A stretch of DNA of 64,000 nt from Candidatus Hydrogenedentota bacterium (GTDB lineage Bacteria > Hydrogenedentota > Hydrogenedentia > Hydrogenedentales > SLHB01), in NCBI GenBank assembly GCA_963745075.1, contig CAVUWV010000008.1, positions 256,001 to 320,000 of the forward strand. Reading direction: 5' to 3'. Positions 6,833-40,481 of this stretch are shown here, one piece after another. The notes under the pieces were generated by a model. That model was not told the DNA's origin. It made no database searches and saw nothing but the letters and a program-made list of their open reading frames with translations. The position numbers and the translations under genes are program-made. Position 1 is the first letter of the stretch; each line of letters starts with the position of its first letter.

Positions 6833-7876
6833 ATGAAACCACATATCCCCAAGATCCTCGCGGCATGTTCGCTGATACTGAACTCATGCGCGCTGATCTT
6901 TTTCGTAAGGTGGCTCTTTAAGCTAAAAGTTTCTGGCATTGCCGGCCATGTTGGTTTTCAAGTGACGCATCGAGGACCGGTGGAGTGGTTGATAGCGGCT
7001 CTCGTGCTCTCCATCCTTGGCGTACTAACGACGGTTGTCAGCCTGATCGGCCTGACGCGTAAGCGCGGTGCTGCGCACCCGACCCATTCATCATGGCTGC
7101 GCGTGTTGACCGGCCTCGCGCTCCTGGGCGTTACCGCGCCGGCAATTGGTATCATTCCAGGCAGTGCATTGCTGCTGCCAAGTGCACAACGGGAAGCCCG
7201 CCGAGAGGCCGCAATCCACGATCTACCCGAAATAGACCGGCTTCTGAAGGCCCTGAAAGATGAAAATTACGACGTCCGCCGCGACGCAGCGCAAAAGCTC
7301 AGAAGCGAATCGTGGCTGCCCGAAAGCGCAATTCCCACGCTCACGAAGGCAGCGGCGCGCCATGATGGAGAGCCCAGTACTTTGTCCGTCCAAGCGCTGG
7401 CCCATTTCCACAATATCCCGGACGATGTGGCCCCTCGCCTGGTGGGCTTACTGGACACGCCGGAGATAGGCCCCGTCGCGGGAGAGGTTTTGGGCGGGTT
7501 TGGCGAGACGGGTGTTGATGCATTGTTGAAGGCATCAAAATCGCGAGATGCGCAGGTGCGCCAGTCTGCCGCGCACGGCCTGGGAAAATGTTCCAACTTT
7601 AAGGAAGAAATAATCCCGCAGCTCACGGGACTGCTCAGCGATGAGAACGGCTCCGTGAGGGCGGCTGCTGCGATGTCTCTGGGCAGTTGGGGCGTCAAAT
7701 CGAAATCCGCGCTTCCGATACTGCAATCCATGGCAAACGATCCCGACCCCGATGCCCGCAGCGATGCGGGATGGGCCGCCCGTGAAATTGCAAGTCGAAC
7801 CAGATCGCCCAGTCAGCCGTTACCGTTACGCGACGGTGGGCCTTTGGGCCAAACAAAAAGCGCCCCGGCCCAGTAA
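6833..7876 (+). CDS. Membrane-anchored HEAT-repeat protein
   Basis: Three N-terminal hydrophobic helices, then repeats LKDENYDVRRDAA, SRDAQVRQSAA, LSDENGSVRAAAA and DPDPDARSDA. Confidence 0.8.
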   Translation: MKPHIPKILAACSLILNSCALIFFVRWLFKLKVSGIAGHVGFQVTHRGPVEWLIAALVLSILGVLTTVVSLIGLTRKRGAAHPTHSSWLRVLTGLALLGVTAPAIGIIPGSALLLPSAQREARREAAIHDLPEIDRLLKALKDENYDVRRDAAQKLRSESWLPESAIPTLTKAAARHDGEPSTLSVQALAHFHNIPDDVAPRLVGLLDTPEIGPVAGEVLGGFGETGVDALLKASKSRDAQVRQSAAHGLGKCSNFKEEIIPQLTGLLSDENGSVRAAAAMSLGSWGVKSKSALPILQSMANDPDPDARSDAGWAAREIASRTRSPSQPLPLRDGGPLGQTKSAPAQ

Positions 7877-7953
7877 TCACCGGACCGGGGCATATATGCA
7901 TAAACCCCGGCTAAAAAGTACTGCCGCCGAGGGAAGGCATATGGCTCCCCGAG
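7848..7953. repeat. 106-bp direct repeat, copy 1 (tRNA 3' end, trailer and terminator); copy 2 at 8327-8432
   Basis: GCCAAACAAAAAGCGCCCCGG...GGAAGGCATATGGCTCCCCGAG occurs twice, 479 bp apart, with about 7 mismatches by eye. Confidence 0.95.
7849..7891 (-). terminator. Rho-independent terminator, duplicated copy
   Basis: On the minus strand a GCCCCGG(T)CC stem is followed by GCTTTTTGTTTGG; one stem position differs from copy 2. Confidence 0.7.
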
Positions 7954-8054
7954 TCACGCCGCACGCGTGATCTGCGACAGACTCGAACTTGCGACCTAGT
8001 GGTTAATCCCGCGTGCCGCGGGACTCTACCAACTGAACTCGGGATTACTCGGGG
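7942..8054 (-). pseudogene. Pseudo-tRNA-Asn with three sequence replacements
   Basis: Colinear with the tRNA at 8421-8496. On the + strand, CA is replaced by 25 nt (7954-7978, including hairpin TCACGC-CGCAC-GCGTGA), CAGCCACCCG by hairpin TCCCGCG-TGC-CGCGGGA (8007-8023), and GCTA by ACTCGGGATTAC (8037-8048). Confidence 0.9.
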
Positions 8055-8311
8055 TCTCCCCGTGTCACGTCATCGAAATAGCGCCCGATGCCCCGTTTCT
8101 TGATCTTCTTTTCCAACGCCATGGCCTCGGCCCGGGTCGGCAATTCGCATTTCCAGACGAGTTCCCATGGGCCTTCGAAACGCTTTGTAGTCTTGGAGCC
8201 ATGATAGTCAGGATCGTTGTGTTGGGCGATGCGGCGTTCGACATTGTCAGACGAGCCACAGTAGTAACGCCCCGTGGTTGCGCTTCGCAGAATATACGTC
8301 CAGCAAGGCAT
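8045..8311 (-). CDS. Small stand-alone GIY-YIG nuclease (88 aa)
   Basis: WTYILRS...YYCGSSDNVERRIAQHN...SKTTKRFEGPWELV...RAEAMALEKKIKK. Both motif tyrosines and the Arg, His and metal-binding Glu positions are present. Confidence 0.92.
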   Translation of the reverse strand: MPCWTYILRSATTGRYYCGSSDNVERRIAQHNDPDYHGSKTTKRFEGPWELVWKCELPTRAEAMALEKKIKKRGIGRYFDDVTRGDPE

Positions 8312-8327
8312 CGGTAGCCCCCTACCG

Positions 8328-8370
8328 CCAAACAAAAAGCGCCCCGGTCCAGGTTGCACCGGACCGGGGC
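8328..8370 (-). terminator. Rho-independent terminator of the tRNA-Asn transcript
   Basis: Perfect 10-bp stem GCCCCGGTCC/GGACCGGGGC (8341-8370) followed on the minus strand by GCTTTTTGTTTGG, 50 bp after the tRNA CCA. Confidence 0.85.
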
Positions 8371-8420
8371 ATATATGCATAAACCCCGGCTAAAAGATAC
8401 TGCCGCCGAGGGAAGGCATA

Positions 8421-8496
8421 TGGCTCCCCGAGCAAGACTCGAACTTGCGACCTAGTGGTTAACAGCCACCCGCTCTACCAACTGAGCTATCGGGGA
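8421..8496 (-). tRNA. tRNA-Asn (GTT), 76 nt, encoded CCA
   Basis: The reverse complement reads TCCCCGA TA GCTC AGTTGGTA GAGC G GGTGG CTGTTAA CCACT AGGTC GCAAG TTCGAGT CTTGC TCGGGGA GCCA, a complete cloverleaf. Confidence 0.98.
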
Positions 8497-9178
8497 TTAA
8501 ACTTGCTTCCGAAATTACTCGGACGGTTAATCCCGCCATGGGCGGGACTCTACCAACTGAGCTATCGGGGATTAAACTTGCTTCCGAAATTACTCGGACG
8601 GTTAATCCCGCCATGGGCGGGACTCTACCAACTGAGCTATCGGGGATTAAACTTGCTTCCGAAATTACTCGGACGGTTAATCCCGCCGTGGGCGGGACTC
8701 TACCAACTGAGCTATCGGGGATTAAACTTGCTTCCGAAATTACTCGGACGGTTAATCCCGCCGTGGGCGGGACTCTACCAACTGAGCTATCGGGGATTAA
8801 ACTTGCTTCCGAAATTACTCGGACGGTTAATCCCGCCGTGGGCGGGACTCTACCAACTGAGCTATCGGGGATTAAACTTGCTTCCGAAATTACTCGGACG
8901 GTTAATCCCGCCGTGGGCGGGACTCTACCAACTGAGCTATCGGGGATTAAACTTGCTTCCGAAATTACTCGGACGGTTAATCCCGCCGTGGGCGGGACTC
9001 TACCAACTGAGCTATCGGGGATTAAACTTGCTTCCGAAATTACTCGGACGGTTAATCCCGCCGTGGGCGGGACTCTACCAACTGAGCTATCGGGGATTAA
9101 ACTTGCTTCCGAAATTACTCGGCCGGTTAATCCCGCCATGGGCGGGACTCTACCAACTGAGCTATCGGGGATTAAACT
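8473..9178 (-). repeat. Tandem array of nine 75-bp tRNA-Asn-derived units
   Basis: Exact 75-bp period, with CTCTACC at 8473 (inside the tRNA), 8548, 8623 ... 9148. Minus-strand unit: 28-nt leader, tRNA nt 1-24, TCCCGCC-CAY-GGCGGGA, tRNA nt 35-40. The only variants are in the hairpin loop (ATG x3, GTG x6 on +) and A>C at 9123. Confidence 0.97.
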
Positions 9179-9203
9179 CGGTCCCGACCCCACGCCACGC
9201 TCT

Positions 9204-9247
9204 TCAAGCCCGCCAAGCGCCGGACTTTACCAATTGAGCTATCGGGG
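9204..9247 (-). repeat. Degenerate tenth array unit
   Basis: TCAAGCCCGCCAAGCGCCGGACTTTACCAATTGAGCTATCGGGG aligns without gaps to the unit consensus with about 7 substitutions; it sits 77 bp from unit 9. Confidence 0.85.
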
Positions 9248-9261
9248 TCAGTTTGACTCAA

Positions 9262-9291
9262 AGTCTACCGCATGGCCGGGACTTAATGCAA
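9262..9291 (-). promoter_or_regulatory. Candidate sigma-70 promoter for the array + tRNA transcript
   Basis: Minus strand TTGCAT-N18-TAGACT with an A-tract upstream; the -10 box ends 14 bp before the tRNA-like 5' end of the degenerate unit. Confidence 0.55.
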
Positions 9292-9569
9292 GTTTTTGCC
9301 ATGTTTGAGCACCGGGACGGTCGCGTAGCCGGTGATTCGCTCCGTTCACGCGCGGCTCCGCGCCGTCCGTTGAGACCCGGAATCTGCCCTGCGCTCGCGC
9401 GGATACGACCGCCCAACCTGACGCAACACCCGGCGCGAAGGGGGTGGTTGTACAGGACTGATTCTCTCGCCTCGCATTTGATAACCTGACGACCATGAGT
9501 TTGGGGTGGCATTGCGTCTGGTGTCCGGTCGTTGACACGCCACGAGAACCGTTTACAAAGGAATCCCTC

Positions 9570-11430
9570 ATGCACCGAAGTCGTCTGTTCGTAGCGTTTT
9601 GGGTAGGAATTCTCGTCTGGAGCGATCTTTGCCTCGCCCAAGCGGCGCAAAAGGGGATCGAACTGCAGGAAACGTCGCGCGACAAGCTGCGCGTGGAGTA
9701 CGTGGGCTATCGCGCCGCGCGGTATGAAACCGAGGCGCTGATCGAGCCGGACAACGAACGGCCGAACCAAGGCGGCCTGGTGTACGTCTATCTCACTAAC
9801 GTCACCGACGAACCGGTTCACTTGGCCTTTTACCAGATTAACGGCAAAGACGAATCGACGTGGCGGCTGGACGGTTTCCTGGCTTGGGACCGCGTCTACA
9901 GCAGCACCTTGCAACCCGGCCAGACCACGGTTCAGGAATTGAACGGGATCACCCGCGATTTCGGGAACGGACAACCCTTCGCGTTCACCTACATCGATCG
10001 CACGTGGAAACCAGCCATGCGGACCTATCGCACCACGCTGGAGGAGGACCCGGTCCAGATTTCATCGGTGCGCATCCGACCGGACATGGCCACGCTGGAC
10101 GTACACGTCCGTCACTCGGTAAAAGCAAAGCGGCATTAGGTTCGTTGGAAATTCTCGGTCATGAAACGGCAACGTGGAATGGGTCGGCGATACAATGCGC
10201 GGCCAATCCCACGCCATCGCCCGGTTGACGCTGGCTACACCGTTGAAACCGTCCGAACTCGCCATCCTGAAACTGGACGTGAACGACGCGGACGGCGAAC
10301 GGTTCGTCTATACCCACCGCCGAGCCTTCGTGGACCGGTTTCCCATCGGCACCTGGTCGGCGAACGAAAAGACCTGGGAAGAGTTGAAGCGGATTCACGT
10401 CGACACCGTCGTGGAAGGCGGCTCGCCGGAAAATCCGTTCTTCTCTAAGGCCGTTCCGACGTATGGGTTCCACGCCATGGTGCCGACGGACAAAGGCCGC
10501 GCCATCGACACCATTCGCAGTCTCGGCGGGTCCCCCGCGGTATCGTGCTGGATGCTGTCGGACGAACCGGACTGGTCCACCGCCGCGAACATCATGCTCT
10601 TCGCCGACGGTCTCGCGCGCCGCTATGACTCCACCATCCCCACCTTCATCACGCTCTGCCGCAACGTGAAATTCTTCGAGTACGCCGCCATCGCGGATAT
10701 CCCGTGCCAGGACCACTACTGCGTCACCGCGCCGACAAGCAGCAAATGGCCCCACGTGTACGGCACGCATCTCGAAGAAACGGCCTACTATACCCGCGAC
10801 CTGAAAGCCGCCTGCGAACCCAAGCCAATCTGGGTGTGGTCCCAGGCGATCGCGAACTGGGAGGAGCGCCCCCTGCGCCCCCTTCCTACGCCGGAGGAAC
10901 TCGCCGCGCAACTCGTCTACAACCTCGGTCGCGGGGCCAAGGGCATCCTCTGGTTCAATTATGACCACGACGTGGCCGAGAAATATCCCGAAGTGCGCGA
11001 CGCCATGCGCGACTGGGGACGCGTGATGCGCATGATCCGGGAAGATTTGCTCGCCTCCGATCCGGTGCAGTTGCACTCGGAGGCGCCGAAGAAAGTCGAC
11101 GTGGCCACGCTGGCCACACGGGATAAGGTCTTCGTGTTCGTGTCGAACCAGGACTACGAAATCGACAAACAGGCCTACCCGTTCCACACGCAGCGGAACG
11201 TGACCGTTCACCTCGATCTGCCCGATTGGGTTGCGCCGAAGGCAGCGCTGGAAGTGTCGCCCGACGGCGTTGCCGAATTGCCCTGCGAAATGAGCCGCAG
11301 TGGCGCGAGGTTGACGCTGAATGAGCTGCACGTTGCCCGGGTCTTCGTACTCGCGAACGACGCTGAATCCAGGTCATCATACGAAACCGAATACCAGCAA
11401 GCATTGTCCGACGAGCAAAAGACGTACTGA
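9570..11430 (+). CDS. Secreted hypothetical protein with a glycoside-hydrolase-like C-terminal domain (two apparent indels at about 10117 and 10172)
   Basis: Signal peptide at ATG 9570. ORFs 9495..10139 and 10174..11430 are bridged by GKSKAALGSLEILGHETA in the third frame. WMLSDEPD, CQDHYC and RGAKGILWF motifs. Confidence 0.65.
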
Positions 11431-40295: not shown

Positions 40296-40481
40296 ACGGC
40301 TGTCCTGCGGCAGATTATGCAATTCCCGGGCCGTGGACAGAGGTCCCGGAGTTGATCCGCGCCCCGGTCAATGTGTACCCTATTAGGGTGTGCGTACCCA
40401 ATGCACATCGAGAATCATGATAACGGAATAGCTGGTCCCGCTAACGGCGGGAATCGAAACGACAAGAAGGAAGGGCTTCCC

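Follow-up and report, generated by a model that had tools for sequence, protein, structure and literature searches.

Within a 64,000-nucleotide stretch of a Candidatus Hydrogenedentota genome (assembly GCA_963745075.1, contig CAVUWV010000008.1, positions 256,001 to 320,000; hereafter ‘the window’), a gene for an 88-residue GIY-YIG nuclease sits between an intact tRNA-Asn gene and a second, displaced tRNA-Asn copy that is disrupted by hairpins, and nine tandem units built in part from the 5′ portion of the same tRNA precede the intact gene. We read this locus as one instance of a widespread cassette, namely a free-standing nuclease element of the homing type that is located at a tRNA gene. In our preferred explanation, to which we assign a probability of roughly one half, it is a selfish GIY-YIG cassette of minimal size with specificity for the tRNA-Asn gene, accompanied by hairpin-edited copies of its target, with arrays that arise as by-products of break-induced amplification. 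The cassette has a defined anatomy, is associated with tRNA-Asn, carries a conserved hairpin with a covarying base pair and encodes a protein under purifying selection. The element has apparently not been described before; like the initial annotation of the window, which knew of no named system with this layout, a full-text literature search found none, most subscription journals lying outside that search.

A GIY-YIG cassette at the sole tRNA-Asn gene

Read along the minus strand, the locus consists of a promoter-like motif, a degenerate unit, nine near-identical units, the tRNA-Asn gene, a terminator, the GIY-YIG gene, a pseudo-tRNA-Asn and a second copy of the terminator (Table 1). All of these parts had been listed in the initial annotation, and each was found at its place on that strand. 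The tRNA-Asn(GTT) gene at 8421-8496 is the only tRNA-Asn among the 46 tRNA genes that ARAGORN finds genome-wide, and tRNA was the sole match when positions 7000-10000 were searched against Rfam at E values up to 1. The nuclease gene is likewise single-copy in the genome and is the only open reading frame (ORF) between the tRNA repeats. No integrase or transposase was seen by Pfam in the ORFs that flank the cassette, as the initial annotation had also reported.

Table 1 Parts of the cassette locus in the window, in minus-strand order
Feature	Position	Strand	Basis and details
Promoter-like motif	9262..9291	-	TTGCAT (9286-9291), 18-nt spacer, TAGACT (9262-9267); read from the sequence
Degenerate first unit	9172..9247	-	Mutated 5′ part of tRNA-Asn, imperfect hairpin, diverged tail
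Nine tandem 75-nt units	8497..9171	-	Direct reading and Tandem Repeats Finder
Intact tRNA-Asn (anticodon GTT)	8421..8496	-	ARAGORN; Rfam tRNA, 70.9 bits
Spacer with intrinsic-terminator-like hairpin	8312..8420	-	Stem 8340-8371, then T run; z -3.95
GIY-YIG nuclease gene, 88 residues	8045..8311	-	Stop codon 8045-8047; PF01541
Pseudo-tRNA-Asn	7942..8044	-	Direct reading and alignment to the intact tRNA
Second spacer and terminator copy	7848..7941	-	Stem 7861-7892, then T run

The pseudo-tRNA-Asn has a degenerate 5′ acceptor strand and an intact 3′ end, including CCA. Between them, the hairpin TCCCGCG-GCA-CGCGGGA (8007-8023) stands in place of tRNA positions 25-34, and a second hairpin, TCACGC-GTGCG-GCGTGA (7954-7970), stands in place of part of the T stem. 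The array units are built along similar lines: each contains tRNA-Asn positions 1-24, a 17-nucleotide (nt) hairpin (TCCCGCC-CAC/CAT-GGCGGGA), the sequence TTAACC corresponding to positions 35-40, and 28 nt of leader-like sequence, so that only about 30 nt of the 75 derive from the tRNA. At 8473-9178, Tandem Repeats Finder reports a period of 75, 9.4 copies and 99% matches.

The degenerate first unit starts about 14 nt past the -10 element, where the native tRNA would be expected to start, and as DNA it folds no better than shuffled sequences (z -0.94). As for the promoter proposed in the initial annotation, a promoter scan returned no sites, the motif falling below the thresholds of the tool; similar TTGCA(T/A)-N17-18-TA(G/C)ACT motifs do precede tRNA-Asn in relatives.

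The cassette accompanies tRNA-Asn in many phyla

Searches of a species-level genome collection yielded 428 loci confirmed by tblastn, and locus counts were taken on the best 80. Under the labels of their submitters, these 80 come from Thermodesulfobacteriota, Hydrogenedentota, Nitrospirota, Zixiibacteriota, Verrucomicrobiota, Planctomycetota, Acidobacteriota, Ignavibacteriota, Pseudomonadota and other phyla. A co-oriented tRNA-Asn(GTT) ends within 150 nt upstream of the ORF at 52 of the 80 loci, lies farther upstream at five and is found only downstream at four. The remaining 19 loci contain no tRNA, yet 16 of these keep a remnant of a tRNA 3′ end 46-114 nt upstream. tRNAs other than Asn occur just twice across all 80 loci. 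A TCCCGC-loop-GCGGGA hairpin follows the ORF within 120 nt at 58 of 78 assessable loci. The companionship of nuclease, tRNA copies and hairpins that the initial annotation saw in a single locus thus extends to the homologues.

The region upstream of the tRNA is more variable. Among the 57 loci with an upstream tRNA, the same hairpin occurs upstream of it in 30 and is lacking there in 27, and at least two extra upstream D-arm (tRNA 5′) fragments are present in 11, in arrays of up to about six units; the leader and the end point of the units within the tRNA differ lineage by lineage. The array in the window is the longest among the loci examined. Tandem second cassettes, partial or complete, are frequent (G003, G001, G013, G119, G098, G099, G056 and G107), and homologues often lie at contig ends or on very short contigs, as repeats do. 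A second protein subfamily, with 40-53% identity to the first, also lies directly after tRNA-Asn, often as tandem cassettes.

Closer to the window, in 41 related genomes (G000 included), the gene is present in all five congeners, in 5 of 19 other members of the family, and it was not found in the 16 genomes that represent the order's other families. Phylum-wide, its distribution is patchy, with 26 of 135 genomes positive and 17 of 66 genera represented.

A different type of site is seen in three genomes, where a ParB-HTH gene and the 3′ remnant of a tRNA-Asn adjoin the cassette at a distance from the true tRNA. At L016 (1881-2303, plus strand), and similarly at L020 and L021, the cassette follows a tRNA-Asn-like 3′ end and lies next to a divergent 140-residue ParB-HTH protein (PF17762, E 5e-5); such a site may be the edge of another integrated element.

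Hairpins replace stem strands in surplus tRNA copies

When the intact tRNA was aligned to the sequence past the nuclease gene at 52 loci, the downstream piece was typically a copy of that tRNA running from about position 8 through the terminal CCA, in which a hairpin takes the place of the 5′ anticodon-stem strand as far as G34; many of these loci have a second hairpin before the T loop. In total, 171 hairpins were found in 71 of 81 loci. TT follows the hairpin in 146 of the 171 cases (TTAA in 105), and AG precedes it in 124, which include 106 with the D-arm end RAGAG. The hairpin also recurs in the arrangements GTTAA|hairpin, hairpin-TTAA-hairpin, hairpin|TTCGA and TTCGA|hairpin, and within the D arm. 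Whatever the junction, the tRNA loses one stem strand to the hairpin and retains the loop (TTAA or TTCGA); all surplus tRNA copies have lost the stem strand next to TTAA in this way, and the intact tRNA is unchanged. A palindromic GTTAAC was considered as a required target and is ruled out by some host tRNAs that read GTTAAT.

The hairpin is conserved as a structure and, within a subfamily, nearly as a sequence. In an alignment of 95 D-arm-plus-following segments, whose rows were picked solely by the three bases that follow the D arm and include a mis-registered one, six stem pairs are near-invariant, the seventh covaries (CG 50, UA 22, GC 5) and the loops vary freely; 95.5% of cells are paired, and none of 500 shuffles reaches the observed measures. 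The near-fixed stem sequence inside the subfamily argues for sequence-specific recognition. In subfamily 2, a diverged hairpin follows CTGTTA and shows the compensatory variants ATTCGCC, ATACGCC and ATCCGCC. That protein and hairpin diverge together is to be expected from their linkage alone.

Edited tRNA loci go with the gene

Twenty relatives that lack the GIY-YIG gene have plain tRNA-Asn loci, with no hairpin or extra fragment within 330 nt upstream and, where the sequence sufficed, an equally clean 260 nt downstream, two of these loci ending at the contig. Two gene-bearing genomes compared alongside show both the hairpin and an extra fragment. Across the phylum, the chimeric D-arm/hairpin/TTAA motif occurs in 12 of the 135 genomes; motif and gene coincide in 11, one genome has the motif without the gene, 15 have the gene without the motif and 108 have neither. 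We attach no statistical test to these counts, as the 135 genomes are kin. In the single motif-bearing genome without the gene, the motif lies within 230 nt of contig ends.

Flanking sequences speak for an insertion of DNA. In the gene-free genomes G025 and G017, a flank hairpin (TTACGAAC...GTTCGTAA) comes directly after the intact tRNA. In the gene-bearing genomes G007 and G127, the TTACGAAC...GTTCGTAA flank instead comes after the pseudo-copy; behind the intact tRNA stand another terminator and the nuclease gene. A comparison of the intact and displaced tRNA halves of G119 offers too few informative sites to place a crossover.

Two side observations concern the same loci. In G032 (L120), where the gene was not found, the terminator of tRNA-Asn is followed by an ATG and a few codons resembling the N terminus of the nuclease, a stub that may be the relic of a lost cassette. 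Also, the tRNA-Asn of the window (8421-8496) is 100% identical to that of G013, a member of another genus, and just 93% identical to those of its own congeners, the differences being paired changes in the anticodon stem; this pattern could reflect retention of the ancestral form or replacement together with the cassette.

A catalytic domain under purifying selection

The 88-residue protein is a GIY-YIG domain and nothing else. It matches PF01541 over residues 3-72 with 67.5 bits (curated cut-off 22.6; E 1.3e-18), and its match to T5orf172 falls below the Pfam cut-off of that family. All 24 of 24 homologues have residues Y6, Y17, G19, R27, H31, N32 and E67, and a basic motif at the C terminus is likewise invariant; we take the catalytic roles of the invariant residue positions from I-TevI. 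The subfamily also has invariant motifs of its own, TTKRFxGPW and IKKRGIxRF. Homologues were sought among proteins of 48-154 residues, and those listed span 78-141. Y17 and G19 correspond to the positions changed in the inactive Y17A/G19A mutant of the phage nuclease SegB (PMC13096335). In several ORFs from different phyla, the last residues are a translated D-arm fragment plus hairpin.

A profile of the 24 homologues, searched against the Protein Data Bank, retrieves BH0048 and EF2693 of the UPF0213 family and SLX1 (E 7e-10, 2e-7 and 1e-5, respectively). By sequence, the protein belongs to the UPF0213/SLX1-like branch, and nuclease activity is predicted. By analogy, the kinship with SLX1 suggests that the protein would recognize a folded structure, either the hairpin or single-stranded DNA in a tRNA-like fold, and not a long duplex site, a mode that would suit a protein without a DNA-binding domain. 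Selection on the protein is purifying: in 15 pairs with 75-99% identity, the ratio of nonsynonymous to synonymous substitution rates (dN/dS) has a median of 0.11 and a maximum of 0.225.

A model for spread and amplification

In the model we favor, the cassette comprises the terminator, a GIY-YIG gene of about 85 codons that encodes only the catalytic domain, and a 3′ D-arm fragment with the conserved 7-bp hairpin. It sits between the functional tRNA-Asn and the displaced, hairpin-disrupted copy, which adjoins the native downstream flank. The nuclease would be expressed by read-through from the tRNA promoter. The enzyme would then break the DNA of a tRNA-Asn gene at or near the TTAA of the anticodon loop and, less often, in the T loop; we place the principal break at TTAA because this is the sole piece of the tRNA that is always kept beside the hairpin, on either side. 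Recombination on the tRNA-derived flanks with a cassette-bearing copy could spread or maintain the cassette and restore one intact tRNA. In the surplus copies, a stem strand would be swapped for the hairpin, and therefore neither a target nor a working tRNA could form there. Finally, repeated breaks at the remaining intact copy, followed by out-of-register repair on 5′ fragments, could build an array of units composed of leader, 5′ tRNA and hairpin. In this scheme, we infer the cleavage and its position, the immunity, the mobility and the way in which arrays arose.

This model corresponds to one of three options raised in the initial annotation, a minimal selfish element whose nuclease cuts the tRNA gene and whose hairpin-edited copies are immune. 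It fits the comparative data best, given the association with tRNA-Asn, the co-occurrence of motif and gene in 11 of 12 motif-bearing genomes and the clean loci of gene-free relatives; the cutting and the immunity are the parts of that option that stay conjectural.

A bolder version of the idea can be entertained, to which we lend tentative credence well short of belief. Here, the protein of about 85 residues would recognize its own conserved 7-bp hairpin in single-stranded DNA, through sequence as well as structure, and jointly with the hairpin would cut and join at the TTAA of the anticodon loop, insert the cassette with a replacement tRNA part and write the hairpin over tRNA stems, which would make it a new class of minimal nuclease-only site-specific mobile element. 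Arrays would then be a running record of repeated events, and the pairing of hairpin and nuclease would be analogous to that of repetitive extragenic palindromic (REP) sequences with REP-associated tyrosine transposases (RAYTs) or to the ends of IS200/IS605 elements, with a GIY-YIG fold as its basis.

Several points weigh against a selfish cassette as we have drawn it. Its target site is deduced solely from the sequence that the hairpins adjoin, the presumed target persists in the intact tRNA, where self-cleavage would need to be tolerated or limited, and the mechanism leaves the writing of hairpins into new copies unexplained. No DNA-binding domain was found, within the 48-154-residue range of the search, that would explain specificity for Asn. 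The strict motif is missing from 15 of the 26 gene-bearing genomes, some of which were seen to have variant hairpins or junctions. Hairpins with the TCCCGC stem also occur outside the cassette, dispersed in genomes that include gene-free ones such as G030 (108 copies) and G032 (53 copies). No relative was found in the viral contigs, plasmids or phages searched, and hence there is no known vector. Horizontal transfer is not demonstrated by the protein tree (84 columns; L037, L064, L081, L083 and L095 omitted for stops or short length), in which one of 71 inner branches is well supported. A dN/dS near 0.1 and presence in all five congeners would suit a host-beneficial gene equally well. Lastly, the number of units in the window has the assembly as its sole source.

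Competing explanations

The selection and retention just mentioned lead to the possibility that the nuclease and hairpin form a domesticated module that serves the host at tRNA-Asn, with the pseudo-copies as decoy or regulatory sites. Such a module might, for example, guard the integration site against integrative elements and phages or resolve structures at a highly transcribed tRNA gene. Membership of the structure-specific SLX1/UPF0213 branch would fit this role, as would the second type of site, next to a tRNA-Asn 3′ remnant and a ParB-HTH gene, where an integrated element may lie. So would the conservation of the spacer: within the genus, 87 nt of spacer and terminator are 95-97% identical (G000 versus G005 or G003), compared with 74-78% for the DNA of the ORF and 71-73% for the promoter region, the ORF of the window itself being 76-78% identical to those of congeners. 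This mosaic could reflect either constraint on a non-coding element or swapping of the ORF between flanks that stay conserved. Against domestication, the patchy distribution across genomes and genera and the tandem and truncated copies are typical of selfish DNA, no conserved partner gene adjoins the cassette and PADLOC found no match to known defense families (best E 0.005, 13.8 bits). On balance, we consider a host function unlikely.

The cassette might instead be a composite of unrelated events, namely attachment-site remnants left by an integrase at tRNA-Asn, invasion by hairpins resembling REP sequences or miniature inverted-repeat transposable elements, a bystander GIY-YIG gene and an array made by slippage. 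tRNA genes are common integration sites at which partial copies are left behind (PMC9897764), and many genomes, gene-free ones among them, contain dispersed repeats built around the TCCCGC hairpin as their core. In the genome of the window itself, a REP-like repeat with the same hairpin core and other flanks (AAGATGGAT-hairpin-ATGACGG) occurs at about 17 places, for example at C1:209169, C13:224477, C13:224537 and C24:55323; a bare copy of the hairpin lies in the window near 40436, and the same core occurs in G042 and G044 with genome-specific flanks. We rejected the idea of a REP family that depends on the gene, as hairpin counts in the 41 relatives do not separate gene-bearing from gene-free genomes. 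Nevertheless, a bystander nuclease accounts poorly for the edited loci. The hairpin-rich, gene-free genomes G030, G032 and G027 have hairpin-free tRNA-Asn loci, the chimeric motif coincides with the gene in all but one of the genomes that have it, and the hairpin type shifts with the protein subfamily. Moreover, no integrase lies in or beside the cassette, and integration at a tRNA 3′ end does not leave 5′ fragments upstream. We therefore view a passenger origin as quite unlikely.

A third alternative operates at the level of RNA: hairpin RNAs from the repeats or pseudo-tRNA could restrain the nuclease in the manner of a type III toxin-antitoxin system, or tRNA fragments could act as decoys or mimics of repeats. 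The order of promoter, repeats, terminator and nuclease fits such a scheme, and one unit folds well as RNA (-29.6 kcal/mol, z -4.55; as DNA, -12.9, z -2.95). The stem is extended by a G-U pair, which is standard only in RNA, and GU is present in 91 of 92 rows. Conversely, the protein lies outside the ToxN, CptN and TenpN families, two or more repeats are found in just 11 of 57 loci, an upstream hairpin is lacking in 27 and the gene persists without an array. The intact tRNA, in addition, always lies between the repeats and the gene. A toxin-antitoxin-like module, the first option of the initial annotation, is not supported; its third option, decoy tRNA fragments, is conceivable, but the array is not a conserved part of the cassette. 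Overall, an RNA-level system seems improbable.

Least likely of all, the nine-unit array could be an assembly artifact whose true number is one or two units, as the 1 to 2.3 units of congeners and the breaking of several relatives’ contigs exactly at units might suggest. Against this, its units fall into three blocks, set by two variant positions in an ordered pattern along the array, within a 562-kb contig of a 36-contig genome, other assemblies contain arrays of three to six units, a 105-nt contig of another sample matches 8499-8603 across a unit junction with 0 mismatches, and an error here would touch the copy number only, leaving the element itself in place.

Other features of the locus

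The spacers that carry the terminators have some properties of their own. The 87-nt part of spacer and terminator (8325-8420 and 7848-7941) is predicted to adopt a two-stem fold with a z of about -3.9. The spacer holds a 9-codon mini-ORF that begins at the CCA of the tRNA, and its CCGGGG / CCCCGG segment could pair alternatively with the terminator stem. An upstream ATG at 8380 opens a 111-residue frame (8045-8380) that runs across the terminator and joins the nuclease ORF in phase; it is probably incidental. When the pseudo-tRNA and terminator of a relative were searched against Rfam, Xanthomonas sX14 was retrieved with 31 bits against a gathering score of 80, and we dismissed this sub-threshold match as a generic likeness of one hairpin with terminator to another.

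The ORFs on either side of the cassette encode a HEAT-repeat protein, a steroid-reductase-like protein, a GH42-like protein and one protein without a family. The unit hairpin with its tRNA flanks has what we take to be a similarity to a class 1 CRISPR repeat, with a stem-loop ahead of a short, A/T-rich handle. The genome showed no CRISPR array, and the only other spaced repeat found in it, near 343480 on C1, consists of four copies of a 20-mer at a spacing of 50-100 nt.

Implications

If our preferred explanation is correct, an essential single-copy tRNA gene hosts a tiny selfish element across several bacterial phyla, and nuclease-driven tandem amplification of the SegB type would extend to bacterial chromosomes. 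The recurrent tRNA-Asn fragments and adjoining contig breaks in metagenome-assembled genomes would also be explained. More generally, a compact nuclease with a defined hairpin partner would offer recognition rules that could be tested with a few oligonucleotides. The edits raise a question of their own, namely by what route a fixed hairpin takes the place of a single stem strand in the tRNA and spares the loops.

Relation to known systems

A group I intron in the tRNA can be set aside, given that Rfam finds only tRNA in 7000-10000 and the tRNA is uninterrupted. With REP/RAYT systems, the cassette shares short, GC-rich hairpins with a conserved stem, which are dispersed and also flank a nuclease gene. 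RAYTs, by contrast, are HUH/Y1 enzymes, whereas the cassette protein belongs to the GIY-YIG group, and the counts of dispersed hairpins do not follow its gene. The likeness to type III toxin-antitoxin loci (ToxIN, CptIN and TenpIN) lies in the order of promoter, tandem repeats, terminator and nuclease gene. The nuclease comes from another family, however, the repeats are not conserved with the gene, and a functional tRNA and a terminator intervene. ToxI repeats also differ in size and structure from the units in the window.

UPF0213 proteins (BH0048 and EF2693) and SLX1 have in common with the cassette protein a small GIY-YIG core, but the cassette subfamily has its own motifs and a fixed genomic context. 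No such context is known for BH0048, EF2693 or SLX1. Elements that integrate into tRNA genes leave tRNA fragments (PMC9897764), and an arrangement of that kind is seen in G007 and G127, where an intact tRNA stands on one side and a displaced partial copy on the native flank stands on the other. The cassette departs from such elements in having no ORF for a tyrosine or serine recombinase and an insert of about 0.45 kb, and in a displaced copy that keeps its D arm, has stems swapped for hairpins and is joined by extra 5′ fragments upstream.

Like homing endonucleases, the cassette nuclease is encoded next to a conserved target gene, although a DNA-binding domain for a long target is absent from it according to Pfam. 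SegB, a free-standing GIY-YIG homing endonuclease of T4/T6-like phages, is its closest experimentally studied counterpart. The enzyme is described as enriched beside tRNA genes, as cutting inside them and as driving, in experiments, a tandem amplification of the adjacent segment that depends on homologous recombination (PMC13096335). The two share a location among tRNA genes and the catalytic tyrosine and glycine of the YIG motif (PMC13096335). In contrast to the phage enzyme, the cassette protein is chromosomal and consists of an 88-residue catalytic domain only. SegB has additional domains. Furthermore, SegB is associated with many tRNA isotypes (PMC13096335), whereas the cassette keeps to tRNA-Asn(GTT) and brings with it a hairpin that replaces tRNA stems.

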